A DNA stretch of 64,000 nt. Source: Gammaproteobacteria bacterium. Its GTDB lineage: Bacteria > Pseudomonadota > Gammaproteobacteria > Magnimaribacterales > AG-339-G14. The stretch lies in the NCBI GenBank assembly GCA_038141925.1, contig JAYQJB010000002.1, positions 377,443-441,442 on the forward strand, given 5' to 3'. This document shows positions 1,481 to 58,220 of the stretch, piece after piece (position 1 is the stretch's first letter; the number at the start of each line of letters is the position of its first letter). A model generated the notes under the pieces. It was given only the letters and a program-made list of their open reading frames with translations, did not search any database and was not told the origin of the DNA. The position numbers were made by a program, and so were the translations under genes.

Positions 1481-1557
<77 letters not shown>

Positions 1558-1574
1558 ATTTTAAATTTAATATT

Positions 1575-1603
1575 TTGACAGTGATACTGTCATATCCTAT
1601 ATT
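1575..1603 (+). promoter_or_regulatory. sigma70-type promoter (TTGACA, 17-nt spacer, TATATT) with embedded palindrome TGACAGT-gat-ACTGTCA; copy 1 of 2
   Basis: TTGACA at 1575-1580, TATATT at 1598-1603, exact 17-nt spacer. Perfect 7-3-7 inverted repeat at 1576-1592. GGGAGA Shine-Dalgarno at 1613-1618 and ATG at 1628. Near-identical copy at 10130-10158. Confidence 0.5.
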
Positions 1604-1627
1604 CTTCTCTCAGGGAGATAATTCAAA

Positions 1628-3271
1628 ATGCTCAAAAAAACGCTTTACTCACTCATTGCAATTGTTTTCATTGGGATTATTGCTTGGGAATACAAAGTAA
1701 ATATTTTGATTTGGTCTATACCAAAAGTAACTTCAATTCTCATGCCTATTCAGGAAAACATTCCTACTTCTTGGCAAGAAGGTCCTGCAGTTGCTAGTGA
1801 AGATGAAAGACCAAACATCATTTTAATCTTGGCAGATGATATGGGTTACAACGATATTTCCATGCATAACGGTGGGGCATCAGATGGTTCATTGAAGACT
1901 GCCTATATAGATTCTTTAGCAGAAAGCGGTATTTTATTCACTAGAGGTTACGCAGCGAATGCAACTTGTGCGCCTTCCAGAGCGTCCATCATGACAGGAA
2001 AATATCCAACCAGATTTGGTTACGAATTCACCCCAGTACCTGCAACCGGACGATTGATCATGTCTTGGCTTGCTGAAGAAGATGATGCAGCAAACTCAAA
2101 GCAAGAATTGATAACGAAGTTTCAAGAAATTTACCCCCTCTATGGGAACAAGGCATGCCTACTGAGCAAATTACCATCGCTGAAGTATTACGCGATGCTG
2201 GGTATTACACAGCTCATATTGGCAAATGGCATCTTGGGTCATGCCAATGGTATGGACCCATTGAGTCAAGGATTTGAAGATTCTTTATCTTTAGTTGGTT
2301 ATTATCTCCCGGAGGATGATCCAGATGTTGTTAATGCTAAGTTTGAAACAAGAATTGATAAGATGATTTGGGAATCGGTCAATATTCAGCAAGATTTAAT
2401 GAAGGAAAGCTTTTGCTCCAGATAAATATGTCACTGATTACTACACCGATGAAGCATTAAAAGTTATTGAAAAAAATAAAAACAGACCGTTTTTCTTATA
2501 TTTAAGTCATTGGGCAGTACATAACCCTCTGCAAGCGCTTAGAAGTGATGTCGAACAAATGAGTCATATGTCAGATCACAATCTTAAAAGTTTATTCTGG
2601 AATGATTGCGCACTTGATAGAAGTGTTGGAAAGATAATTCGCAAAACTTAAAGAATTAAAATTTATGGAAAAACTTTAATCATTTTTACCAGTGATAATG
2701 GAGGAGCTAATTACATTGAATTAGAAGATATCAATAAACCGTTTCAGAGGATGGAAAATAAGTTTTTTTTGAGGGTGGAATTAGAGTTCCATATATTGTC
2801 AGCTGGCCTGATGAGATTAAACCAGGACAAAAATCTAATAGTGCTGTACATCACTTTGATATTTTTTCCACAGTTACTTCTGCCGCTGGAATAAAATTTA
2901 AAGGAGCAGATTTAGACGGGGTTAATCTTCTTCCATATATTAAGAAAGAAAAATCTTCAGAACCTCATGAAACTCTTTTTTGGCGTTCCGGCAATCATCA
3001 GTCTGTTTTACATGAAAATTGGAAATACATAGTTAGCAAAAAAGAAAATTTTCGTTGGCTTTTTAATACTTCCATCGATCCGACAGAGAAAAACAATGTA
3101 ATCGATTCTTATCCTAAGAAAGCGCAATTACTTGAAGGCTTATTAGCTAAATTTAATTCTGAACAAGCTGAACCGGTCGTACCATCAGGCTTTGAAGTAC
3201 CCATCATGATTGATAAATATGATGGGCAAACATATGAAGCAGGGGACGAATATATTTACTGGTCTAATTAA
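1628..3271 (+). pseudogene. Cys-type sulfatase (arylsulfatase family), frame broken many times (decay or sequence error)
   Basis: Sulfatase motifs are spread over all three + frames. They include ADDMGYNDIS, CAPSRASIMTGKYP (the C-x-P-S-R signature), GKWHLG, APDKYVTDYYTDEAL, LIIFTSDNGG and EGGIRVPYIVSWP. Breaks fall at the C-run 2134-2138, G-run 2236-2238, T-run 2411-2414, near 2745, and at the T8 run 2763-2770. There is an in-frame TAA at 2649-2651. The last 167 codons (2771-3271) are intact. Confidence 0.85.
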
Positions 3272-3347: not shown

Positions 3348-5375
3348 TTAGAAGTTAAAGTTCAATTTGATACCGAAGTTTCGGCCAGCTAAAGGCACTT
3401 CATTTTTAACATACGAAGTGTGATTTCTAGCTTTTTCATCCAAAAGGTTTTTTCCAAAGACAGACAAAATTAGTTCTTCGTCATTACCAATGACAATGGT
3501 TCTTCTGATATCGAAATCAACCATGGTGTAGCCATCTGATACAGACTCACCAAAACTAATGTCATCTTCTTTTTGTACATCCATAATTTTGACGTCATAA
3601 ATAACATTTGAATTTTCAAGGGCAAAGCGATAAACATTTTTGATTGGAGTGATTCTTGGAACATTTCCACCGCTTCCAAAAGTTCCGACAACTTCTTCTC
3701 TACCATACGAAATTTGAAGTTCTCCGTTGTTTGTAGAAAAAGATCTACCTACTTCAAATTCATAACCATTGAAATCGGCATCTGCTTGAGAATAATCTAC
3801 ATTTGGTCTGCCACTAGTAACTGTTCCTCTATTTTTAATATAAATGTAGTCATCTACTGCATTTGCATAAACCGAGGCATTTACAAAGTAGCCATCACTT
3901 TCATAGCTAACACTAAAATCCAAATTATTGGATCTTTCAGATTCTAAATTGACATTACCAAACTCATTTCTACCTGCAGCCAGGTGAGTTCCATTCATGA
4001 AAAGTTCTATTTCAGATGGAGCTCTGGCAACACTTGAAATACCAAGAGTTATGCCAACATTGTTTGCTACATCCCAACCCATGGTAAGAGCAGTACTCAA
4101 GTTACTTTCGCTTATGTCATGAAGAGTGTTACCAATTGCACCATCTCTATTCAACTTGATCCAGACGAACACCAAAATCAAGGTCCATGACTTCTAGTTC
4201 TCTGCATAGGAAGTAACCAAAGCTCAACATTTGGGAATCAACTGGTTTCATGAAAGCTTCTTCACCGATGATTGCTACATCTTCTTGACTTGCGTTAATT
4301 GTTACATTCTGTCTGTTACCACCAGCTTGATTTCCAATATCAAGCTTCATGCCAAATTCAAAAGATTCATTGGTAAAGGTAGTTGGACCATGTTCTTCCT
4401 CTTCCTCTTCTTCTCCTTCATGATGTTCTCCCTCTACATGACCTTCAGTAAAAGAGTAATCATTTTCTTGTAAGAAGTAACTTAACTTGTCCAGTCCACG
4501 CAGATTAGTTGCTGCTCCTTCAAGGGTTAAGTTTTCGGATTCAGTATCTGCTTGGATCCTCTCTTCGTGTTCTTCTTCACCTGCACCATGTTCTTCCTCT
4601 TCTTCACCATGGAAAGCTATTCCATAGGTGTTTTCAATTTTCCCACAGAAAAACCAAAGTAACCCCAGTCTCTAACAACCGAAGTACCAAATTTGTGACT
4701 AAATGTTGCTAGATCAGAGTTCTCTAAAGATGTTTTAGCCTCTGGAGAACCTTCATGGATGATGGCTCCATTTGGAACATCATAGCTTTCGAAATTTACT
4801 TCTTTAAGAGCATAAGTCAGATTTACATCATTGACGTTTCCCTTATAAGAAAAACTTCCCGCAGTTCCCATGTTAGCTGTTTGTCTTTCAAGACCGATAT
4901 TAAAGTCGTTACCTTCAAAATCTTTACTGGCTATAGTTTGATCGACGATATTGATGATTCCACCCATAGTTCCATTGGAATACAACAAAGATGAAGGACC
5001 ACGAACCACTTCAATTTGTTGCAGATCGTTCATATCCACATCGTTTAGATGGTCAGCACCCAACCCAGAGACATCTCTAACCAACTTACCGTTAGAAAGT
5101 ATTCTTACTCTGGTACCGCCTATTCCTCTAATGACCGGTTGGCCAACACCAGGACCAAAGTTTGAAGAATTCACACCGAGTAAATAAGTCAAACTTTCTC
5201 CAAGATTTGTCGAAGCCGAATAATTGATGTCATCCCCTTTGATGACAAAAACTGGTGAATCTATTTCTGCTAGAGTCGCACCACCTAGTGATGAAGTAAC
5301 GATAACTTCTTCATCTGTTGCATGAAGCACATTAAAAAATGCGAAACACAAAACAAAATACAAAGATTTTTTCAT
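3348..5375 (-). CDS. TonB-dependent receptor with His/Glu-rich insertions; two frame breaks
   Basis: N-terminal signal peptide and plug domain (VIRGIGGTRVRILSNG, IEVVRGPSS). C-terminal beta-barrel ends ...GIKLNFNF with a terminal Phe. There are three collinear ORF pieces, with breaks near 4640 and 4160. Total length is 2028 nt, i.e. 676 codons. AGGAGG Shine-Dalgarno lies upstream of the ATG at 5375. Confidence 0.85.
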
Positions 5376-7593: not shown

Positions 7594-7803
7594 ATGGAAA
7601 AAATAATGGAATTATTCTCTAACCACTTATCAAATTGGGGCTTGGTTTGGTTTTGTTTGATTTTCTGGGGAAGCATTTTTAATGCGATATTGATAAGTTT
7701 GCCTTTTAGCGAGATCAGTTCTTATCTAACTTATACAGGATACATAGCTGGTTTAATTTTGGGTCTTTTCGCAAAATCTAAAAAATGGAATTGGTTAGGA
7801 TGA
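7594..7803 (+). CDS. small hydrophobic membrane protein, hypothetical
   Basis: 69-aa ORF with two hydrophobic segments. It overlaps the next gene by 19 nt. No recognisable family. Confidence 0.4.
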   Translation: MEKIMELFSNHLSNWGLVWFCLIFWGSIFNAILISLPFSEISSYLTYTGYIAGLILGLFAKSKKWNWLG

Positions 7804-8707
7804 GCGCAGTTATAGAAAATAATCGAGAAGATCTTTCCATAGACGCAGAAAGACTAGTAGCAAGAACTTTCATGGGAAGAATCGAGTGGGAGATGATTGT
7901 CGTAGGTATAGGTCAATTTTTAATTTGGCTTGGTATATGGTTTATGGTTCTTCAAGGAATTCTGCCTTTATGGGCTGGTTTTATTCTAAGCACAATCTCA
8001 ACGGCCTTTTCATACTTACCATCGCATGCAGGTCAACACGGTCATTTATCGGGAAAACATAAAAACTTAAAATGGCTGAATGCCTTTGTCGGACAAATTT
8101 CCTTGATACCTCTTGCCCAGTCTCATCATATTTTAAAAGCTACTCATATGAAGCATCATGCGCATACCAATAATCCAGAAAAAGATCCTGATTACTTTCA
8201 TACTCATGTAGATCATTGGTGGCAGGCAGCTTTGAATGTTCATCGTCAAACCGATGGAGGAGATCCTAGTTTCAAAAAATGCTGGAAACCTATATGGAAG
8301 AAGATCAAAACTTTAAGGCAGATATCGATAAAGGTTCTACATTTGCTTTGATGATATTTTTTGGTCAAATGATTTCCGCATTCTTTTTTCCTTTGGAAAC
8401 TTTGTTTCTTTGGTGGATACCGAGGAAACTTGTAGCATCATATTTGGGAGTAATATTTTCTCATGAGCCTCATAAGGTTTTGCCGGTTGGTAGATACAAG
8501 GATACTAGATTCTGGGTAAATGGAATTCCTAGATTTTTTAATCATTCAATGCAAATCCATGTAATGCATCATATGTACCCGAATATTTGTCATTTTGATG
8601 AACCAAAAGCAATAGAAGCTTTAAAACCCTTTATGATTGCAAGAGGCATTCCTGGCGCCGAAGATCTTCCTGATAAGATTTCTTACAAACTTCTTACCTA
8701 CAAATAA
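7785..8707 (+). CDS. fatty-acid desaturase family membrane di-iron protein; one frame break
   Basis: Three His boxes: [22 protein letters not shown]. Two overlapping ORFs join at the A6 run at 8274-8279 (FKK|MLETY...). The length is one base short of a multiple of 3. The true start may be the ATG at 7800. Confidence 0.8.
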
Positions 8708-10044: not shown

Positions 10045-10120
10045 GGGGCTATAGCTCAGCTGGGAGAGCGCCTGATTTGCATTCAGGAGGTCCGCGGTTC
10101 GATCCCGCGTAGCTCCACCA
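10045..10120 (+). tRNA. tRNA-Ala (anticodon TGC)
   Basis: Acceptor GGGGCTA/TAGCTCC with the G3:U70 identity pair, anticodon loop TTTGCAT, T arm CGCGG-TTCGATC-CCGCG, encoded CCA. Confidence 0.95.
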
Positions 10121-10129
10121 AAAAAACCT

Positions 10130-10158
10130 TTGACAGTAGTACTGTCATAATCTATATT
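10130..10158 (+). promoter_or_regulatory. sigma70-type promoter (TTGACA, 17-nt spacer, TATATT) with embedded palindrome TGACAGTA-g-TACTGTCA; copy 2 of 2
   Basis: TTGACA at 10130-10135, TATATT at 10153-10158, 17-nt spacer, inverted repeat at 10131-10147. 25 of 29 nt are identical to 1575-1603. The ATG at 10166 lies only 7 nt after the -10 element and has no Shine-Dalgarno. Confidence 0.5.
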
Positions 10159-10165
10159 TTATTTC

Positions 10166-12013
10166 ATGAGAGCATTACACGACTTAGTTATTAGAAACGG
10201 AAAAATTGTTGATGGAAGTGGAAAAAAACCTTTCCATGGAGACCTTGCAATTGATAATGGGAAAATATCTGCAGTAGGAATTGTCGAAAATCCAGGAAAA
10301 AAAGAAATCGATGCCAAGGGCAATATTGTTACGCCAGGATGGGTAGATATTCATACTCATTATGATGGTCAAGTCTGTTGGGACCCATATTTAACGCCAT
10401 CAAGTTGGCATGGTGTTACTACAGTTGTGATGGGAAATTGTGGAGTTGGCTTTGCTCCTGTTAAACCTGGCGATGAGGAATTTTTGATTCAATTGATGGA
10501 AGGAGTTGAAGATATCCCAGGCACGGCTCTTCACGAAGGAGTTGACTGGAATTGGGAAACTTTTCCAGAGTTTTTAGATGCAATAGAAAAAAAGGATTTT
10601 GTCATGGATCTAGGTTTCATGTTCGGACATGGTCCTTTGAGAAGTTACGTCATGGGTTATGAAAGATGTCAAAGTCAAGTTGATGCCTCGGAAGAAGAAA
10701 TTTCAAAAATGTCGGATATTGTCACCGAGGCAATTGAATCTGGTGCTTTAGGGTTTAGTACTTCTAGAACAATTTTACATCGAGATGTTCATGGAGTTTA
10801 TGTTCCTGGAACCGAAGCAAGCTCAGAAGAAATGAAGTCTCTGGCTTTTGCAATCGATAAAGCTGGCGAGGGAACATTGGAAATTGTGTCTGACTGGCTA
10901 GATAAAGAAATCGAAATGTCTTGGATGAGAGAATACGTTGAAAAAAGCGACTGTGGACTAACAGTCCTTCAGACAAGTGGAGACGCAGTAAAAACAATTT
11001 TATTTTGTGAAGAACAATTTCTAAAAGGTAAAAATGTTAGGCCCCAATTTCCAGGTAGGAATGTGGGCATGATGTTTGGTTTGGAAAGTTCTTTGCATCC
11101 TTTTATTGGTCATCCTTCTTATCGCGAAATAGCAGACCTTCCTTTATCCGAGAGGGTAAAAATTATGAAAGCTCCTGCTTTTAAAGAAAAACTACTTAAT
11201 GAAAACCCAAATTTAGCTTCTGAGATAGAAAAATCAATGAATGAGCAAGACAGTGCTAAATCTCAAGAAGAAATAAAAGAGGCAGCCAACTTAGGCCTAA
11301 AACTTATTTCCAATTACGATACGCAGTTTATTTTGGGAGATCCTCCTAATTACGAACCTGGAAAAGAAGACAGTATCGCAGCTTTAGCAAAGTCTAAAAA
11401 CATATCTGAACTTGAGGTTATTTATGATGAATTTCTTAAAAACGAGGGAACTAATCTGGTTTATGCATGTTTTACCCCTTATGAAAATCATAAATTAGAT
11501 TTCGTAGAACGAGCTTATGGTCTTAAATCGTCTGTAGCCGGTGGAAGCGATGGCGGCGCTCATTGTGGATTGATATGTGATGCAAGTATGCCAACAACTA
11601 ATTTGTCTCATTGGGCAAGAGATAGAGAAGCTGGCAAAAAAATTCCAATTGAATTAATTGTCAGAAAACAAACTAAGGATACTGCCGAAACTTATGGTTT
11701 GTTCGATCGAGGAGAAATTAAAACCGGAATGTTAGCCGACCTAAATATTATCGACTTCGACAAGCTTAATGTCACTCATCCAAAAATGGTATATGACTTA
11801 CCTCTAGGAGGAAGAAGATTAATCCAAACTTCTTCTGGTTACTTGGCAACAATTAAAAGCGGCGAAGTAGTCTACGAAGCTGGCGAAGCTACAGGCGTTC
11901 TTCCAGGAAAATTAATTCGAGGAAAACAAACTTGTGAAGTAAAAACAGAAAAGGAAAGAGTTCCTTTCATTGATCGAACTTTTCGTTTGATGTCTGTAAA
12001 AGCTTTGAAATAA
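10166..12013 (+). CDS. N-acyl-D-amino-acid deacylase (D-aminoacylase) family amidohydrolase
   Basis: 615 aa. N-terminus DLVIRNGKIVDGSG, metal-binding DIHTHYDGQ, and GVTTVVMGNCGVGFAP, typical of this amidohydrolase subfamily. Confidence 0.85.
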   Translation: MRALHDLVIRNGKIVDGSGKKPFHGDLAIDNGKISAVGIVENPGKKEIDAKGNIVTPGWVDIHTHYDGQVCWDPYLTPSSWHGVTTVVMGNCGVGFAPVKPGDEEFLIQLMEGVEDIPGTALHEGVDWNWETFPEFLDAIEKKDFVMDLGFMFGHGPLRSYVMGYERCQSQVDASEEEISKMSDIVTEAIESGALGFSTSRTILHRDVHGVYVPGTEASSEEMKSLAFAIDKAGEGTLEIVSDWLDKEIEMSWMREYVEKSDCGLTVLQTSGDAVKTILFCEEQFLKGKNVRPQFPGRNVGMMFGLESSLHPFIGHPSYREIADLPLSERVKIMKAPAFKEKLLNENPNLASEIEKSMNEQDSAKSQEEIKEAANLGLKLISNYDTQFILGDPPNYEPGKEDSIAALAKSKNISELEVIYDEFLKNEGTNLVYACFTPYENHKLDFVERAYGLKSSVAGGSDGGAHCGLICDASMPTTNLSHWARDREAGKKIPIELIVRKQTKDTAETYGLFDRGEIKTGMLADLNIIDFDKLNVTHPKMVYDLPLGGRRLIQTSSGYLATIKSGEVVYEAGEATGVLPGKLIRGKQTCEVKTEKERVPFIDRTFRLMSVKALK

Positions 12014-14702: not shown

Positions 14703-15861
14703 TATTAATCGATACGTACTCTGGTGAAAGGTCTGATGTCATGATAAGAGCCGATTGTTTAGATTTTCCAAGATTGATTTCAATATTGATTGTTTTTTTT
14801 CTAAATTCCTTTTTGCCCTTTGCTTCGGAATATTTTGGACTTAGATTTCCATTGACTAAAACCGGATGACCTCCAATTTTAAGTGTTAGATTTTTCATAT
14901 CAAATTCCTTTGCATCGGCATTTCCTGCGGCGGTAATGATTCTGCCCCAATTGGGATCTTCACCGTATGCTGCTGTTTTAACTAAAGGAGAATTTGCAAT
15001 TTTTAAAGCAACTTTCTTAGAAGCTTGATAGGAGCTTAATCCCGAAACTTTAATCTTAATGAGTTTGGTTGCACCTTCTCCGTCTAAACCCATCTTTTCA
15101 GCCAATTCTCTAAAGACCTCAAAAAAGTTATTCTTAATTTTTTTGTGATATTTCTTAAAATCACTTTTTATTTCTGAAGTTGTTGCAAAAATACTTGAAT
15201 CACTTGGAGACTGATCTCCATCAATTGAGATGGCATTAAATGTCTGATCGCAAATATCCCTATGCAATTTCTTCAATTGAATTTTTGTAAGTTTTAGATC
15301 TGTAAAAATAAAACTGAGGGTAGTTGCCATATTTGGTTCAATCATCCCAACTCCTTTTGCAACTCCAATTACATTTATTTTTTGATTCCCTGGCTTGAAT
15401 TTCTTTTTTACTACCTTATGTCGAGTATCTGTAGTCATTATTGCGTTAGCAAAGTCTTCCCAAGAATTTTTGCCTAACTGATTGGTACATTTTTTAAAAG
15501 CTTGAGAAAGCTTTTTGGTATCTAGTAATTCTCCTACCACACCAGTAGAGAAGGGTAGGATATTGTCTTTGGATACGTTTAATAAAGAAGAAACATCTTC
15601 AATAAGTTTTTCAGAGTCTTTTTTCCCTTTCTTACCGGTTGCAGCATTTGCATTTCCTGCATTGACCATTAAGACCTTCGGTTCTGCAATATTTTTATTC
15701 ATTTTTTTCAAACATATTTCAACTGGAGCAGACTTAAATTTATTCGAGGTAAATAAACCAGACCAAATTGCCTCCTTCTCAAGTTTTACTATTGAGGTAT
15801 CCAATCTAGTTCCATACTTTGTCTTTGAGGACGCACAACCAATTTTTATATCTTTCAACAT
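14686..15861 (-). CDS. argJ: bifunctional ornithine acetyltransferase / N-acetylglutamate synthase
   Basis: 391 aa. Self-cleavage site region EPNMATTLSFIFTD. C-terminal YVSINSDYRS. Confidence 0.93.
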   Translation of the reverse strand: MLKDIKIGCASSKTKYGTRLDTSIVKLEKEAIWSGLFTSNKFKSAPVEICLKKMNKNIAEPKVLMVNAGNANAATGKKGKKDSEKLIEDVSSLLNVSKDNILPFSTGVVGELLDTKKLSQAFKKCTNQLGKNSWEDFANAIMTTDTRHKVVKKKFKPGNQKINVIGVAKGVGMIEPNMATTLSFIFTDLKLTKIQLKKLHRDICDQTFNAISIDGDQSPSDSSIFATTSEIKSDFKKYHKKIKNNFFEVFRELAEKMGLDGEGATKLIKIKVSGLSSYQASKKVALKIANSPLVKTAAYGEDPNWGRIITAAGNADAKEFDMKNLTLKIGGHPVLVNGNLSPKYSEAKGKKEFRKKTINIEINLGKSKQSALIMTSDLSPEYVSINSDYRS

Positions 15862-18494
15862 TATCTTTTTTTCTTTTTTCTGTTAGCTTTTGCTTGCAGT
15901 CTTCTTAAACGTCTGTTTCCTTCTGCTGGTTGATCGTTACTGGATGCTTGTTGTTTAGACACAGAATTATCCATAAATGCTGAAGGCGAATTTTCATGCA
16001 CTGTTTTAGTTTTTTCTAAAACCTCTCTAGATTTCATTTTTTCAATTTCTTCTTCGTCTTCAGGTTTTACTTCGACGCGGCAGAGGAACCTTGTAGATTC
16101 TTTTTTAATTGTTTCAAGAAGTTGTTCAAACATCTCAAACGCTTCTCTTTTGTACTCAAGACGCGGATCTTTCCCTGCATAACTTCGAAACCCAATGTTT
16201 TGTCTGAGCGAATCAAGTTGATTGATATGATTTTTCCAACTCTGATCAATGACCTGAAGGATGATTTGATTTTCCAATTGAGAATAAACGTTTGGAAATT
16301 TATTTCTTTTTTCTAAGTAAATTTCGTCAGCAAAATCCAAAAGCTTATTCAGCACCTCTTGCGTGTTGGATTCACTATTTTCTAATTCAGCTTTTAAATT
16401 AAATTGCAGATTAAATTCAGATTCTAGGATGTTTGTTAGTTCATCAACTTTCCAATTGGTTTCTATTTCATATTCAGGAATATGAGCTTCAAAAGTCGAG
16501 CTCAAAACATCAGCTCGCATATTTGAAATTAAGTCGTCTAAATCTTTATCTTCTAATATTTCCTTTCTTTGCTTATAAATTACCTGTCTTTGTTCATTCA
16601 AGACATCGTCAAATTCTAGAATTCTTTTACGAATATCAAAATTCCTACCTTCAACTCGTCTTTGAGCTCGTTCTATAGAATTAGTTAACATCTTATGTTC
16701 TATAGATTCTCCTTTTTTCATTCCACCAAAGGATTGCATTAGAGCTTTCATTCGGTCGGGGGCAAATATCTTTAGCAAGCCGTCATCTAGTGATAAGAAA
16801 AACTGCGAAGAACCGGGATCACCTTGCCGCCCTGACCTTCCTCTCAGCTGATTATCAATTCTTCGGGATTCATGTCTCTCGGTGCCGATGACATGCAATC
16901 CTCCCAATTCAACAATTTCCTTTCTGGCTGTTTCAGATTCTGGGAATCCTCCAAGGACAATATCTGTTCCTCTTCCAGCCATATTTGTAGCTATGGTCAC
17001 AGCTTTTTCTTTTCCAGCTTGGGAAATTATTTCTGCCTCTTGTTGATTTTGTTTAGCATTTAAAACACGATGATGAATATTTAAGGTATCTAGTTTTTTT
17101 GACAAAACTTCAGAGTTTTCAACAGATATGGTGCCAACAAGAATGGGATTGCCTTTTTCGTGATAAGTCTTTATCTCATCGATGATGGCATCATTTTTTT
17201 CATCCTCTGTGAGATAAATTTTATCGTTTTTGTCTTCTCTAACCATTGGAAGATTTGTGGGAATAGAAATTGCTTCCAAAGAATAAATTTCATCAAATTC
17301 TCTAGCTTCTGTTTTCGCAGTTCCTGTCATTCCTGACAGCTTTTCAAACATCCTGAAGAAGTTTTGAAAAGTAGTAGATGCAAGTGTTTGACTTTCAACT
17401 TGAATGTCTAGATTTTCCTTTAATTCTAAAGCTTGGTGAACCCCATCAGAGAGTCTTCTGCCCGGCATCGCTCGACCTGAATTCGTATCAATTAAGATGA
17501 CTTTTCCATTTTGAACTATGTAATCGGTATTTTTTTCAAAGAGAGTTTCAGCCCTAATAAGAGCTTGAACCATATTCAGAAGTTTTAAATTTTCACTGGC
17601 ATACAGACTCACAGAATCCTCGAGGAGGTTATTTTGCTTGAGATAATTTTCTATTTTTTCATGCCCATTTTCGGTAATTTCAATTGATCTGGATTGCAGA
17701 TCTATAGTGAAGTCTCCTGCTTTAAGTACTTCTTCTTTTTCAAAATCAAACTCTTCCTCAGTGAGACTTTTCACCACCGGCTTAAGTTTTCTGTAGAGAG
17801 GCCCATTATCTTCTGCAACGCCACTTATAATTAGAGGAGTTCTGGCTTCATCGATTAGTATCGAATCCACTTCGTCTACCACTACAAAATAAGGATCTCT
17901 TTGTAGACGATCTTCCTCTCTAAGAACCATATTGTCTCTAAGATAGTCAAAGCCCAGCTCGTTGTTTGTGGCATAAACAACTTCTTTAGCATAGTTTTCT
18001 TTTTTTTCTAAAGGATTAAGTTCTGGAGTTATATATCCAACATTCATTCCCAAGCCTTCGAAAATTGGAGCCATCCAGTTTGCATCCCTTTTCGCCAAGT
18101 ATTCATTAGCAGTAACTACAATGACACTTTTTCCAGTAAGTGCATTGAGATAACAGGGTAGGGTTGCAACCAATGTCTTGCCTTCTCCAGTTGCCATTTC
18201 AGCAATCATGCCTTCATTTAAAATGGCACCACCGATTAGTTGACAATCGTAGTGACGAAGTCCTAAAAATCTTTTACTTGATTCTCTTACAGCTGCAAAC
18301 GCCTCTGGCATGAGGTCTTCTAAACTTGAACCTTCGGAAAGTCTTTCTTTTAATTTACTAGTAGTATTTTTTAGTTCTTCGTCCGTGAAAGAATCAAAAT
18401 TTTGTTCTAAATCATTTATTGAATTTACAACGCTTCCGAGTTTGCGTAAAACTCGCTTATCTTTGTTTCCAAATAAGAATGACAATATGGACAT
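15861..18494 (-). CDS. secA: preprotein translocase ATPase SecA
   Basis: 877 aa. MATGEGKTLVATLP Walker A, VDEVDSILIDEARTPLIISG, TNMAGRGTDI, basic C-terminal tail. Confidence 0.98.
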   Translation of the reverse strand: MSILSFLFGNKDKRVLRKLGSVVNSINDLEQNFDSFTDEELKNTTSKLKERLSEGSSLEDLMPEAFAAVRESSKRFLGLRHYDCQLIGGAILNEGMIAEMATGEGKTLVATLPCYLNALTGKSVIVVTANEYLAKRDANWMAPIFEGLGMNVGYITPELNPLEKKENYAKEVVYATNNELGFDYLRDNMVLREEDRLQRDPYFVVVDEVDSILIDEARTPLIISGVAEDNGPLYRKLKPVVKSLTEEEFDFEKEEVLKAGDFTIDLQSRSIEITENGHEKIENYLKQNNLLEDSVSLYASENLKLLNMVQALIRAETLFEKNTDYIVQNGKVILIDTNSGRAMPGRRLSDGVHQALELKENLDIQVESQTLASTTFQNFFRMFEKLSGMTGTAKTEAREFDEIYSLEAISIPTNLPMVREDKNDKIYLTEDEKNDAIIDEIKTYHEKGNPILVGTISVENSEVLSKKLDTLNIHHRVLNAKQNQQEAEIISQAGKEKAVTIATNMAGRGTDIVLGGFPESETARKEIVELGGLHVIGTERHESRRIDNQLRGRSGRQGDPGSSQFFLSLDDGLLKIFAPDRMKALMQSFGGMKKGESIEHKMLTNSIERAQRRVEGRNFDIRKRILEFDDVLNEQRQVIYKQRKEILEDKDLDDLISNMRADVLSSTFEAHIPEYEIETNWKVDELTNILESEFNLQFNLKAELENSESNTQEVLNKLLDFADEIYLEKRNKFPNVYSQLENQIILQVIDQSWKNHINQLDSLRQNIGFRSYAGKDPRLEYKREAFEMFEQLLETIKKESTRFLCRVEVKPEDEEEIEKMKSREVLEKTKTVHENSPSAFMDNSVSKQQASSNDQPAEGNRRLRRLQAKANRKKKKR

Positions 18495-20123: not shown

Positions 20124-22004
20124 CTAATTAATAACTTTCAAATCAATCCTTTTTCTAGAAGTTTCCACGGATTTTATTTTAATTTTAAATTTATCACCCA
20201 ATGCGTAAATATTTTGTTTATTTGCAGAGGCAAGAGAATGAGCTGTCGCATCATGAACATAATAAGGCGCTCTTTTAAGATTTTTTACATGACAAAACCC
20301 CTCAATATTAAGTTCACTGATATGCATAAATACGCCAAATTCCAATACCGCCACTACTTCTCCATAAAATTCTTTTCCGATGTGTTGTTCGGCACACTTA
20401 CAACTTAGATATTTAGAAGATTCCCTTACAATTTTCTCTGCTTCTCTATCTTTATCACTACAAATTGTAGCAATGCCATCTATTTCATCTTGAGAATAAG
20501 AGCTTCCTTTTTTTCAATAATCGACTTAATAACTCTATGCGTTACCAGATCCGAATACCTTCTTATTGGAGATGTAAAATGACAGTATTCTTCAAGTCCA
20601 AGAGCAAAATGGTTACTTTCTTTTCCTGAATAGACAGCAAGCTTCATACTTCTTAAGATCTGATATATCAAAGAAAAGGATTTTTCTTTTTGTTTGATCT
20701 CTTTTAGCCAAGCGTTGAGTTTCTTTCTAGGATTAGATTCAGTCATGCCTTTACGAAGACCTCTTGCTTTAAGAAATTCTTTAAGCTTTTCCAATTCATG
20801 ATAATCCGGGTTATCGTGGTGTCGGAATGGAATAGGTTTTTTAAGTTTTTTAGTTAATTTTGCTGCACAAATATTTGCCAGAATCATAGATTCTTCTATG
20901 ACTTCATTTGCTAGTAGATGATTTATCGATTTGAACTTAATTATTTTGTTATCTTTGCCAACAGGCCTATATTCAGGAAGATAAAAATCTATTGCCTTCC
21001 TTTCTTCTCTTATTTTTCTTCTCAAAGCATGTATTTTTTTTAGAGAACTCAAATTAGACACGATATCATCTGAAAGAGCTGTTTGACCTTTTTGATAAAA
21101 TTTTTCAACCTCATCATAGGTGAGACGATTCTTAGAACAGATAATAGAATTGAAAAATTCATAGGATTTTATTTCTCCTTTTCTATCTAGATAAATTTCG
21201 CAAGTTAAAACCAACTTATCTTCGTTAGGCCTCAATGAACAAAGTTTATTTGATATAAGTTCTGGCAGCATAGGGATAACTTTTTTTTTCAAAATAAACC
21301 GAGGTGGCTCTAGACAAAGCTTCTTTATCTAGCGAAGAATCTTGAAGCACATATTCGGAAACGTCTGCTATTGCTACATACAAAAGATAGCCATCGGAAC
21401 TTTCCTTAGCATACACAGCATCATCAAAATCCTTCGCATTGCTTCCATCAATGGTCACAAAATTTAAACTTCTCAGATCTTTTCTGGAGTTGATATCTTG
21501 TTTTGAAATATCTCTTTTGATCTTGTTGCATTCGTTAATAATAGATTTGGACCATTCGGTAGAAAGCTCGGTTCCATTAGTTGCAAAAATAAAAGCCTCC
21601 TCAAATACATCACTGCTTTTTAAGGTTTTGATAGGCTTTGCTTTGGGCTTGTACTTTAGAGATGGTTGAGATGTTATTTTTACTTCACAAATTTCATTTG
21701 ATTTGAAATTCTTCAAATTCTTGCCCTCTAACAGGATATCGAGATGAAAACTTTTGTCTAGACTGGTTAGAAAGGTCTTGCCTTTATACTTCTTAATAAT
21801 ACCCGTAAGCTCACGGGTATTCCTCTTCAAAACTTCCTTAATTTTTGCCTTGCTACCAGGCATTTTTTGACAGACAACTTCATCGCCTGGAAAAACTTTG
21901 AACATTTCTCTATTCGATAAAGACAGAAATTCATCCTCTGAATACTTTACCCTCCCTCTGCCCGATTTATTTAAAAATACCGTGGCTTTGAAATTTTCTT
22001 TCAT
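20124..22004 (-). CDS. rnr: ribonuclease R; two frame breaks at T-runs
   Basis: RNB motifs DFDDAVYA, IPMLPELISNKLCSLRPNEDKL and FTSPIRRYSDLVTHR, plus a C-terminal S1 domain. Three collinear pieces join at the T9 run 21281-21289 and the T7 run 20508-20514. Total 1881 nt, i.e. 627 codons. Confidence 0.9.
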
Positions 22005-55418: not shown

Positions 55419-58220
55419 TTATAAAAACTTTCCAGTATAGGACTTTTTGCATTTAGCTAGTTGACTAGTATCTCCAGCAGCAACTATTTCTCCTCCACCA
55501 TTTCCACCTTCGGGTCCAATATCAATAATCCAATCAGAGTTTCTGATTACATCTAAGTTATGTTCAATCACAACAATTGTGTTTCCTTGAGAGTTTAATT
55601 TTTGTAAAACATCCATTAGCAGCTGGACATCATGAAAGTGTAAACCTGTTGTCGGTTCGTCTAATAAATAGATTGTTTTACCTGTAGAAGTTTTAGAGAG
55701 TTCTTTAGCTAGCTTAACTCTTTGAGCCTCTCCCCCAGATAAAGTGGTAGCTGGCTGTCCTAACCTCAAATAACCAAGTCCTACTTGATTTAAAGTATCG
55801 AGTTTTTTCTTGATTTTTGGAACGGCTTCAAAAAATATAGAAGCTTGATCAACAGTCATATTTAAAACTTCTGAGATATTCTTACCTTTATATTTAACCG
55901 TTAAGGTTTCGTTGTTGTATCTCTTTCCATTACAAACATCACACTTAACATAAACATCTGGGAGAAAGTGCATTTCTACTTTTATCATTCCATCTCCCTC
56001 ACAGGCTTCACATCTTCCTCCTCTGACATTGAAGCTAAACCTTCCAGGTTTGTATCCTTTAGCTCTAGCCTCTTGCGTTCCAGCAAAAAGTTCTCTTATT
56101 GGAGTGAAAATACCTGTGTAAGTTACTGGATTAGATCGCGGGGTTCTGCCGATGGGGCTTTGACTTATTTCGATAACTTTATCGACAAGTTCCGTACCTT
56201 CTATTTTTTCAAAAGCCTCAGTTTTCATGGAACTTTTACTTAAAATATTCGACAGAGCAGGATAGAGCGTTTGATTTATCAAAGTAGATTTTCCAGAACC
56301 AGAGACTCCTGTAATAGAAATTATATTTCCCTAGGGGAATTTCTAAATCTACATTTTTTAGGTTATTTCCTGTACATCCTGATAACTTGATTTTTCCTTT
56401 ATCTATAATTTTTTTCTTTTTTTCTATTTGAATTCTTTTTTTCCCAAAAACATATTGAGAAGTAAGAGAATTTTTGGCTTTTTAAGAGATTCAATATTTC
56501 CAGAAAAACAAACTTCTCCTCCATGGATTCCTGCTTTTGGACCTATATCTATAATATGGTCTGCTTCTTCAATTGTTTCTTGATCATGTTCCACAACGAT
56601 TACTGTATTACCCAGCTCTTTAAGTCTTTTTAGAGTAGATAAAAGTTTTTTGTTATCTCTTTGATGTAAGCCTATAGAAGGTTCATCAAGAATGTATGTT
56701 ACTCCCACTAAGCCAGCACCAATTTGTGAAGCGAGTCTTATCCTTTGGGCCTCGCCTCCACTCAAAGTTTCAGCACTTCTAGAAAGAGTAAGGTAGTTAA
56801 GACCAACATCAGAAAGGAAAGTTAAGCGCTCTTTTATTTCTTTAATAATTTTTATTGCAATTTCCCCTTTTACCCCTGTCAAAGTTAGTTTTTTAAAAAA
56901 ACCAAGAGCATCACCAATTGTCATCCCTACAATTTCAGGTAATGAAAATTTATTTATAAATACGCTTCTTGCTTCTAGGTTCAATCTGGTTCCGCTGCAC
57001 TCATCGCAAAGGGTATTTGTCATAAATTTTGCATAATATTCTCGTCTAAAATTTGAATCTGTATCTCCAAGTCTTCTTTCAATATTTCTTACAACGCCTT
57101 CAAAAGGCTTAAATATTTCTCTTTTAAAACCTCTTTTGGAAACGTAACTAAAATCAACTTCATCATCGCTCCCATATAGGACAATTTCTTTTTCTTTTTC
57201 TAATAGATCTTCGAAAGGAGTATCAAGAGAAAACTCAAAAGTTTGGCTAACTCTATTTAACAAGTATCTGTTGTGGTAAGTGAGACTAGCATCCCAGTCC
57301 TTTATGGCTCCCTGGTTAAGACTAAGTTCTGGTCTAACAATTAATTTAGAAAAATCTATTTTTGATTTATAGCCCAAACCATCACAAGATGGACAAGCAC
57401 CAGATGGACTATTAAATGAAAATAATCTTGGCTCTAATTCTTGAATACTAAAGCCACATTTAGGACAGGCCATTTTAGTAGAAAATGCATCAAAACTTTT
57501 TTCATCATCCATATCTTGAATTTCAATTAATCCATTAGACTCAGATACACAAGTCTCTAAAGATTGTATGAGGCGACTATTGTTTTTTAAATCAATAGTT
57601 AGCCTATCAATCACAATGGATATCGAATGTTTTTTATTTTTATCTAGTTTGATTTGATCACTTAAATCATAAACTACTCCATTTACAGTTACTCTCACAT
57701 ATCCTTTCATGAGGAGATCATTAAATAAGTTCAAATGCTCGCCTTTTTGCCCTTTAATTACTGGAGCTAAAATGAAAACTCTTTTTTTATTAAAAGTTTT
57801 AAGTATTTTCTTACCTATTTGATCAATGGTTTGACCTTCAAGAGAGATATTGTGATCCAAACATTGTGCAGTGCCTGATCTGGCATAAAGTAATCTAAGA
57901 TAATCATAAATTTCTGTTACAGTTCCAACTGTTGACCTTGGATTATGAGAAGTTGATTTTTGCTCAATGGATATTGCTGGAGACAATCCTTCTATGGTGT
58001 CAACCTCAGGTTTGTCCATGACCGAAAGAAATTGTCTAGCATAAGCAGAAAGGGACTCTACGTATCTTCTTTGTCCTTCGGCATACAAGGTATCAAATGC
58101 AAGTGAGGATTTTCCTGAGCCAGATAAGCCAGTTATTACCGTCAGTTTATCTCTAGGTATATCTAAATCAATATTCTTAAGATTGTGTTGCTTAGCACCT
58201 TTGACATGAATAAATTTCAT
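55419..58220 (-). CDS. uvrA: excinuclease ABC subunit A; two frame breaks
   Basis: [23 protein letters not shown], two LSGGEAQR signatures, Zn-finger Cys pairs. The middle segment ([16 protein letters not shown]...[17 protein letters not shown]) is read in a third frame. Breaks are at the T5 run 56471-56475 and T3 run 56326-56328. Total 2802 nt, i.e. 934 codons. Confidence 0.95.

Follow-up and report, generated by a model that had tools for sequence, protein, structure and literature searches.

The stretch of DNA analysed here (64,000 nucleotides, G+C ~36%, referred to below as the window) contains two tRNA genes that are each followed, on the forward strand, by a short promoter-like module and then by a hydrolase gene. 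The first is tRNA-Ile(GAU) (positions 1481-1557, forward strand), the upstream neighbour of module copy 1 (1575-1603, forward strand) and of a sulfatase gene (1628-3271, forward strand; Pfam PF00884, examined with tblastn and blastn against intact orthologues). The second is tRNA-Ala(UGC) (10045-10120, forward strand), the upstream neighbour of module copy 2 (10130-10158, forward strand) and of an amidohydrolase gene of the N-acyl-D-amino-acid deacylase family (10166-12013, forward strand; Pfam Amidohydro_3 and source names). Both tRNAs were called with ARAGORN and Rfam and are treated as context only, the sulfatase and amidohydrolase genes being the proposed targets of copies 1 and 2, respectively. 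The tRNA ends at 1557 and 10120 agree with the spacing reported in an initial annotation of this DNA, which had placed the modules 17 nt after tRNA-Ile and 9 nt after tRNA-Ala. An Rfam scan of the window returned six tRNAs and nothing else.

The sulfatase reading frame is broken in the window (frames 2, 3 and 2 in succession, with 22 gaps in 2 kb relative to its relatives), whereas in its orthologues the frame is unbroken, at 547 aa. The genes for a TonB-dependent receptor, a desaturase, RNase R and UvrA are also split relative to intact orthologues, and these split genes point to indel-rich assembly errors rather than real pseudogenes. A Shine-Dalgarno sequence for the sulfatase (GGGAG at 1613-1617) is predicted by the leader fold to lie inside a small 5'-UTR hairpin. 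The amidohydrolase has the N-terminus MRALHDL, which is the same in its relatives, and a C-terminus 18 aa shorter than that of the 633-aa orthologues; an exact-protein look-up of the window amidohydrolase returned no match because the window copy is truncated. Its homologues, up to 97% identical, came from marine metagenomes, and one was named as from a SAR86 cluster bacterium; homologous proteins thus assign the window to the gammaproteobacterial group SAR86 and not to Leptospira, an origin first considered in view of the low G+C and the stand-alone tRNA-Ile and tRNA-Ala.

The two modules are near-copies of one another, copy 1 reading TTGACAGTGATACTGTCATATCCTATATT (1575-1603) and copy 2 reading TTGACAGTAGTACTGTCATAATCTATATT (10130-10158), and the mismatches between them fall at module positions 9-10, in the centre of an inverted repeat (dyad), and 21-22, in the promoter spacer. 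Copy 1 has the -35 hexamer TTGACA at 1575-1580, a 17-nt spacer and the -10 hexamer TATATT at 1598-1603, with a predicted transcription start at ~1610. The -35 of copy 2 lies at 10130-10135 and its -10, again TATATT, at 10153-10158, with the ATG 7 nt further on and the start predicted at 10165-10166. Both modules match the sigma-70 consensus at 11/12 positions (TTGACA-17-TATATT), and they were the top two sigma-70-like sites in the first 14 kb of the window. Near-consensus hexamers, a 17-nt spacer and retention of these elements in orthologues give both modules the features of sigma-70 promoters, with start sites that are predicted.

Overlapping the -35 and spacer of each promoter is an exact TGACAGT-N3-ACTGTCA dyad (1576-1592 and 10131-10147), which, with a conserved TA after its right arm, we regard as a putative TetR-type operator. 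Operator copy 1 spans 1576-1594 (TGACAGT at 1576-1582, ACTGTCA at 1586-1592 and TA at 1593-1594) and operator copy 2 spans 10131-10149 (arms at 10131-10137 and 10141-10147, TA at 10148-10149), neither being assigned to a strand. The extended operator consensus is wwTGACAGT-N3-ACTGTCAww, built on a 17-bp core dyad. No further dyad site was found in the 64-kb window even when 3 mismatches were allowed, and shuffled-window controls gave a mean of 0.14 dyad matches at ≤2 mismatches. The right half-site 9-mer, ACTGTCATA, occurs twice in the window, both times within the modules. The initial annotation had described these features from the letters alone, and its description held throughout: 25 of 29 positions identical with the differences confined to the dyad centre and spacer, a consensus -35 with an exact 17-nt spacer and a TATATT -10 in each copy, a perfect palindrome over the -35 and spacer, and no other full palindrome in the window.

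That annotation had also seen no transcription-factor gene in the window and had suggested an unlinked regulator of a small hydrolase regulon. A Pfam search of ~26 ORFs of the window, which left aside the ribosomal-protein cluster and several others, likewise gave no transcription-factor domain, and tblastn did not find the cognate regulator gene described below, tetR, in the 64-kb window. We scanned one genome per species from 185,579 species for TTGACA-N6-CTGTCATA-N3-TATAWT, which returned 81 loci, ~30 of them marine and nearly all of these from SAR86. The ~50 matches outside SAR86 (Clostridia, Saccharicenans and others) were rejected as unrelated consensus promoters without the 7-bp arms, some of them carrying a CIRCE element. 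A scan of viral contigs for the bare 14-base dyad gave at least 120 scattered single matches.

The marine matches fell in three contexts: before the sulfatase (17 species), before the amidohydrolase (3 species) and at a third locus (nine SAR86 genomes and two MAGs labelled Rhodobiaceae). In this third context all 11 of the 11 loci had a divergent gene for a TetR-family protein (PF00440) of 191 aa, starting ~10-60 nt from the dyad or dyads. The dehalogenase-like gene on the other side of the intergenic region has the promoter in which one dyad is embedded, and a second dyad usually lies 25 bp upstream of that one, outside the promoter's -35. The arms of the second dyad reach 9 bp, reading TATGACAGT-GAA-ACTGTCATA in locus L148. 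A consensus promoter for tetR itself was sought by eye in the 93-bp intergenic region, which held only weak candidates, such as TTGCTT-18-TAGAAT.

For a motif-blind test, a TetR protein alignment was used to fetch 57 tetR loci (254 kb) from metagenomes by protein similarity alone. These loci contained 92 dyads with ≤2 mismatches, against 0.78 expected from base composition, and every one of the dyads lay upstream of tetR. At least one dyad was present in 49 of the 50 loci having at least 60 nt of upstream sequence, the lone exception having degenerate dyad copies, and 41 loci had a dyad pair exactly 25 bp apart. Across 484 kb of mainly SAR86 DNA, dyads with ≤2 mismatches were confined to the tetR/dehalogenase, sulfatase and amidohydrolase contexts, and an additional 20-kb tetR locus had no dyad outside the tetR intergenic region. 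The dyad co-occurs tightly and specifically with tetR. The upstream bias for which the initial annotation had proposed a scan of related genomes was found, as the dyad occurred in this DNA in the three contexts only and always in a promoter or before tetR. A dispersed palindrome of the REP or MITE type was considered and rejected, with 2 copies in the 64-kb window, three gene contexts in ~0.5 Mb of mainly SAR86 DNA, and a fixed position in the promoter or before tetR.

The 191-aa proteins beside the dyad matched PF00440 above its cut-off, and the database homologues of the regulator were all already annotated with PF00440, some of them being named TetR/AcrR. Homologues that are 40-43% identical have an invariant helix-turn-helix (HTH) region (DGRKLRS..T.DHIL, G.RTIFRHF) and the same operator. 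An AF2 model of the regulator, of moderate confidence (pLDDT 74.5), has ten helices in the all-helical TetR fold, and its best Foldseek matches in the PDB were the TetR-family repressors EthR, BkaR, DesT, FadR and TetR(D), at TM ~0.65. Searches of the PDB and NCBIfam by sequence gave weak, generic TetR matches (e.g., 25 bits to the NCBIfam FadR model against a cut-off of 200), so we do not regard the protein as an orthologue of a known regulator.

At the tetR locus, the gene with the embedded promoter encodes an alpha/beta hydrolase that passes the NCBIfam haloalkane-dehalogenase subfamily cut-off (315 vs 265 bits), and it adjoins tetR in nearly all loci. A GST-like gene comes next, and a longer tetR contig continues on that strand with an NMO-like gene, a further alpha/beta hydrolase gene and some small unknown genes. 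The sulfatase, the amidohydrolase and the dehalogenase gene all have a TTGACA-17-TATATT promoter with the dyad lying across its -35 and spacer. In some lineages a second hydrolase gene follows the sulfatase under the same putative operator, with best NCBIfam matches to haloalkane-dehalogenase models that fall below their cut-offs, and it adds to the hydrolase/detoxification theme.

Given where the modules sit in the window, we considered the alternative put forward in the initial annotation, that the palindrome is an RNA hairpin terminating the tRNA-Ile and tRNA-Ala transcripts or guiding their 3' processing, and that it overlaps promoter hexamers by chance. Both window copies do lie 9-17 nt after a tRNA, no other terminator is found between the tRNAs and the downstream genes, and the isolated stem folds at -7.5 kcal/mol (z ~-2.9 against shuffled sequence), but the fold in context is unexceptional (z -1.2 to -1.4). 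There is no T-run after the stem on the forward strand, and a terminator scan found nothing on that strand at either site; with 3 G-C pairs among the 7 of its stem, the palindrome was rejected as an intrinsic terminator or processing hairpin. In the clade typified by L009 the stem is down to 5 bp and -3.3 kcal/mol, tRNA-Ala has no hairpin at all after it in the relatives at 85% and 80% amidohydrolase identity, and none of the remaining four tRNAs of the window has anything comparable, two of these leading directly into tuf and secE.

The relatives also separate the module from the tRNAs. In two loci (L167 and L169) tRNA-Ala is separated from the module by a ~750-bp FkbM-type methyltransferase gene, in another (L195) a DGQHR-domain gene has come to stand after tRNA-Ile and before the module, and in a fourth (L140) the 39 nt preceding the module, which is all that is covered there, are not tRNA-Ile sequence. 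Despite these insertions the module stays directly before the sulfatase or amidohydrolase in all four loci, even where 0.75-1.5 kb has been inserted behind the tRNA. At the tetR loci, whether derived from the scan or fetched motif-blind, no tRNA was found in the fetched flanks, and the dyad occurs at at least 60 such loci. We consider a role in tRNA termination or processing highly improbable. By its placement across these loci, the module belongs to the downstream gene and the tRNA proximity is incidental, because the module follows that gene through insertions and occurs at tetR loci without a tRNA; the position directly 3' of two tRNAs given in the initial annotation was thus correct for the window, and the link it implied was not upheld. 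Flanks of tRNA genes may be sites of gene turnover in a compact genome, where both regulated genes would merely happen to be located. More speculatively, a bound repressor might also stop read-through from the tRNA promoters.

We next compared upstream regions at loci around amidohydrolase homologues 97, 93, 85 and 80% identical to that of the window. At all four distances the sulfatase promoter keeps TTGACA, ACTGTCATA and TATATT. An alignment of 18 distinct tRNA-Ile-to-sulfatase spacers has TTTTGACA, ACTGTCATA and TATATT as its sole invariant blocks, with the 3-nt centre of the dyad and the flanks varying, and ACTGTCATA is invariant across sulfatase lineages down to ~75% protein identity. The left arm at the sulfatase is 7 bases long in the window's clade, and only 5 bases long in the L009-type clade, where these bases are also part of the -35.

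In all orthologous amidohydrolase loci, including those without a dyad, a -35 and a -10 are set 17 nt apart and the -10 lies 6-7 nt before the ATG. Because the -10 is always this close to the ATG and there is no Shine-Dalgarno sequence, the amidohydrolase mRNA is probably leaderless. The dyad itself is present at this gene in four of five lineages sampled at 93-97% protein identity, the fifth (93%) having lost the right arm, and the loci of the 85% and 80% identical orthologues keep the promoter but have no dyad. Since the dyad is missing at ≤85% identity and half-lost in one 93% lineage, membership of the amidohydrolase in the proposed regulon would be recent and dispensable. By this distribution, the predicted promoter is old at both genes, and so is the putative operator of the sulfatase, that of the amidohydrolase being recent. 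The expectation in the initial annotation that orthologous loci would keep the motif held for the sulfatase, with an invariant right half-site in the 18 spacers and a left arm that is shorter in the L009 clade, and failed for the amidohydrolase at 85% and 80% identity.

This lability at the amidohydrolase bears on a further reading, in which the modules are merely strong promoters, the dyad is a relic or by-product whose regulator was lost or never in control, and the near-identity of the two copies comes from short-patch copying of a promoter. Copying is compatible with the 29-bp layout, including the unusual TATATT -10, that the modules share with the dehalogenase promoter. The failure to find tetR in the window, or among the listed matches on the nearest long contig, would also agree with a lost regulator. 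The substitution pattern argues the other way: in the window and in relatives with a 97% identical amidohydrolase the arms are perfect and the differences fall in the 3-nt centre and flanking spacer, which indicates that selection probably acts on the arms, and at the sulfatase ACTGTCATA stays unchanged within a spacer that is otherwise unconstrained.

Evidence on whether tetR and the operators occur in the same genome also speaks to this reading. No tetR was found on the 1.27-Mb contig Ga0494229_00028 of L002, the relative with a 97% identical amidohydrolase, among the best 120 protein matches listed. A protein search centred on the TetR of the single-cell genome AH-324-J20 gave no match on that contig or on a 1.31-Mb contig among the matches listed, and a synteny search with the tetR neighbours gave no match on either contig and no synteny with the window. 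In the AH-324-J20 genome itself the tetR locus (L186) is found together with the tRNA-Ile/sulfatase module (L187). The sulfatase of this genome and that of L002 are 93% identical, so that a single cell with a sulfatase this similar to that of L002 carries tetR, against the idea of a lost regulator. It was the one genome with both loci among the species genomes matched, most of which are partial single-cell genomes or MAGs. The window's own genome would be expected to have tetR too, and we judge it unlikely that the modules are promoters with a relic dyad.

We therefore return to regulation by the TetR-family protein. The reading we favour, at a probability of about 0.8, is that each module combines a sigma-70 promoter, serving the gene on its right, with a predicted operator for a TetR-family repressor encoded elsewhere, which would control the sulfatase, the amidohydrolase and the dehalogenase-like operon together. 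In this scheme the repressor dimer would sit on the operator when no ligand is present and keep RNA polymerase off a near-consensus promoter, and a small-molecule ligand would release it. Release would jointly induce the sulfatase, the presumably leaderless amidohydrolase mRNA and the dehalogenase operon, and TetR would regulate its own gene by way of the operator pair in the adjoining 93-bp intergenic region. We infer both binding and the direction of regulation from sequence: negative rather than positive control fits promoters that are both 11/12 to consensus, and the geometry of an operator covering the -35 and spacer fits repression by occlusion. The unlinked regulator of a small hydrolase regulon suggested in the initial annotation is in this way supported by the comparative data, the likely regulator being the 191-aa TetR-family protein with the same dyad in its own divergent promoter region.

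Some other regulator might act on the dyad, which, set against consensus motifs, resembles the sites of a LexA-like SOS repressor (ACAGT/ACTGT), a GntR/FadR-type protein (GT-N3-AC core) and PhoB (a single CTGTCAT half-site). The dyad and the gammaproteobacterial LexA SOS box (CTGT-N8-ACAG) have the tetranucleotides ACAG and CTGT in common, but the SAR86 half-sites are in the opposite relative orientation and differently spaced. Between the classic SOS genes uvrA and ssb of the window there is neither the dyad nor CTGT-N8-ACAG, the sole copy of which in the window falls inside an ORF (15861-18494). The LexA half-site resemblance pointed out, with its opposite orientation, in the initial annotation found no support, the dyad being co-localised with tetR and not with lexA. 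A Pho box has CTGTCAT twice as a direct repeat, with 11-bp periodicity, in place of the -35, whereas the modules have one direct CTGTCAT only, their other arm being inverted, and keep a consensus -35. The only regulator gene co-localised with the dyad is the TetR-family gene (49 of 50 motif-blind loci), and we give control by LexA, a GntR/FadR-type protein or PhoB very little credence.

By every feature testable here, the predicted system is one of a TetR-family repressor and its operator; the mechanism is textbook, and the regulon was not found described in the literature searched. Like TetR/tetO of Tn10, QacR, AcrR, EthR and DesT, it has a helical regulator of ~190 aa with an N-terminal HTH. 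It further shares with TetR/tetO and the TetR family an operator palindrome lying over promoter elements, a divergent arrangement of the regulator gene and its main target, with a pair of operators between them, and release by a ligand, which is presumed for the SAR86 system. It differs from the family's studied members in that the SAR86 regulator has no close characterised sequence relative, and from TetR/tetO in that the proposed regulon reaches unlinked single genes. In this last respect it is closer to the FadR (YsiA) type of Bacillus, in which one TetR-family protein acts on a short conserved box in the promoters of several separate catabolic genes, and FadR was among the fold matches. 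However, the SAR86 box is different, the genes are those of hydrolases rather than of beta-oxidation, and the SAR86 protein lies outside the FadR orthologous group.

The regulator encoded next to dhaA in Rhodococcus is of the TetR type. The dhaA locus resembles the one described here in having a putative repressor gene beside a haloalkane dehalogenase gene, a likeness of gene arrangement. The neighbouring regulatory gene in Rhodococcus has been proposed to encode a repressor, and strains that adapted to new substrates have lost it or carry it in inactivated form (PMC3414701). Literature searches on SAR86 together with TetR or haloalkane dehalogenase, and on the motif together with TetR, found no description of the TGACAGT-N3-ACTGTCA operator or of a SAR86 TetR regulon.

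SAR86, one of the most abundant groups of bacteria in the surface ocean, is uncultured and has small genomes with few regulators. To our knowledge, its gene regulation is essentially unstudied. With an operator so clearly defined and linked to a single TetR-family gene, a concrete regulon can be predicted, made up of the dehalogenase-like operon, the sulfatase and the amidohydrolase, and because one operator links them, it is suggested that these enzymes act on one class of substrate. The inducer of the regulator would then hint at what SAR86 eats or detoxifies. The regulon would also be changing over short distances, as the amidohydrolase promoter gains or loses the operator between lineages 93-97% identical. 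A more tentative idea, which we think possible and would not yet favour, is that the 29-bp cassette is a copyable unit that recruits accessory hydrolase genes, often at tRNA flanks, into a ligand-sensing TetR regulon for halogenated and/or sulfated algal metabolites, which would bring together dehalogenase-like, GST-like, sulfatase and N-acyl-D-amino-acid-deacylase-like genes. If that were true, SAR86, among the most abundant uncultured bacteria of the ocean, would have its first defined catabolic regulon of the inducible kind, which would also be a candidate biosensor.

When compared with their intact orthologues, several genes of the window appeared broken: the sulfatase (1628-3271), the TonB-dependent receptor (3348-5375), the fatty-acid desaturase (7785-8707), RNase R (20480-22004) and UvrA (55419-58220) were each split or truncated, and the amidohydrolase (10166-12013) was truncated at its C-terminus. 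Because the genes affected include essential ones and the alignments to orthologues contain numerous small gaps, we consider an indel-rich assembly, rather than pseudogenisation, to be the likely cause of these breaks.

The two tRNA genes of interest, tRNA-Ile(GAU) (1481-1557) and tRNA-Ala(UGC) (10045-10120), usually occur as a pair in the 16S-23S spacer. In this genome each is a stand-alone gene: protein genes occupy the 8.5 kb that separates the two, and we found no rRNA within the 64-kb window. The gene content of the interval between them varies between SAR86 clades. Different SAR86 genomes also carry additional genes wedged between the tRNA and the module (the promoter with its embedded dyad). 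A gene for an FkbM-type methyltransferase sits exactly between tRNA-Ala and the module in comparison loci L167 (5052-5720) and L169, and one for a DGQHR (DndB/DpdB-like) protein occupies exactly the corresponding position after tRNA-Ile in L195 (3487-4794). Given these extra genes, the 3' flanks of tRNA-Ala and tRNA-Ile in SAR86 look like insertion hot spots.

The -10 hexamer lies only 6-7 nt before the amidohydrolase ATG in every lineage compared (window 10153-10168; L001-L011, L167 and L169), and no Shine-Dalgarno sequence was found upstream of the ATG in any of these sequences, which together imply that the amidohydrolase mRNA is leaderless. Leaderless mRNAs are uncommon among Gammaproteobacteria. 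We also noted a possible small hairpin of the UCUCUC/GAGAGA type in the sulfatase leader (window 1603-1618), containing the Shine-Dalgarno sequence GGGAG; it is retained in the window-type clade and missing in the clade typified by L009, where the sulfatase leader lacks any obvious Shine-Dalgarno sequence.

At tetR itself, the gene for the putative repressor, 41 of 57 loci carry two operators exactly 25 bp apart, start to start. This spacing, seen in L148 (5129-5183) and most of L213-L262, means that the paired operators face different sides of the helix. Only one operator is present in L204 and in a small number of further lineages. In L263 (2700-2905), L264 and L265, whose tetR genes are distant homologues (~41% identity), the two perfect dyads are located ~270-300 nt upstream of the gene; in L263, an ORF of ~45 codons, Cys-containing, lies between the dyad pair and tetR.

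The genome scan also returned consensus promoters in MAGs of Saccharicenans and Acidobacteria (L153, L171, L172, L194 and L205). Each of these promoters is followed by TTAGCACTC-N9-GACTGCTAA, which matches the CIRCE heat-shock operator, and we rejected these matches as unrelated to the SAR86-type element.

Two MAGs labelled Rhodobiaceae (L193 and L200) have the same operator pair as SAR86 and a TetR that is 43% identical. Their divergent target starts with a small membrane protein gene, followed by a dehalogenase homologue (63-75% identity across the portion present), and behind tetR are MaoC-dehydratase, M20-peptidase, SDR and DsbA-like genes. In L270 (2110-9907), the dehalogenase-like gene under putative tetR control is followed by tightly packed genes on the same strand. 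They encode a GST-like protein, an NMO/IMPDH-like protein and a further alpha/beta hydrolase, together with three unknown products. The run may represent one long detoxification or catabolic operon.
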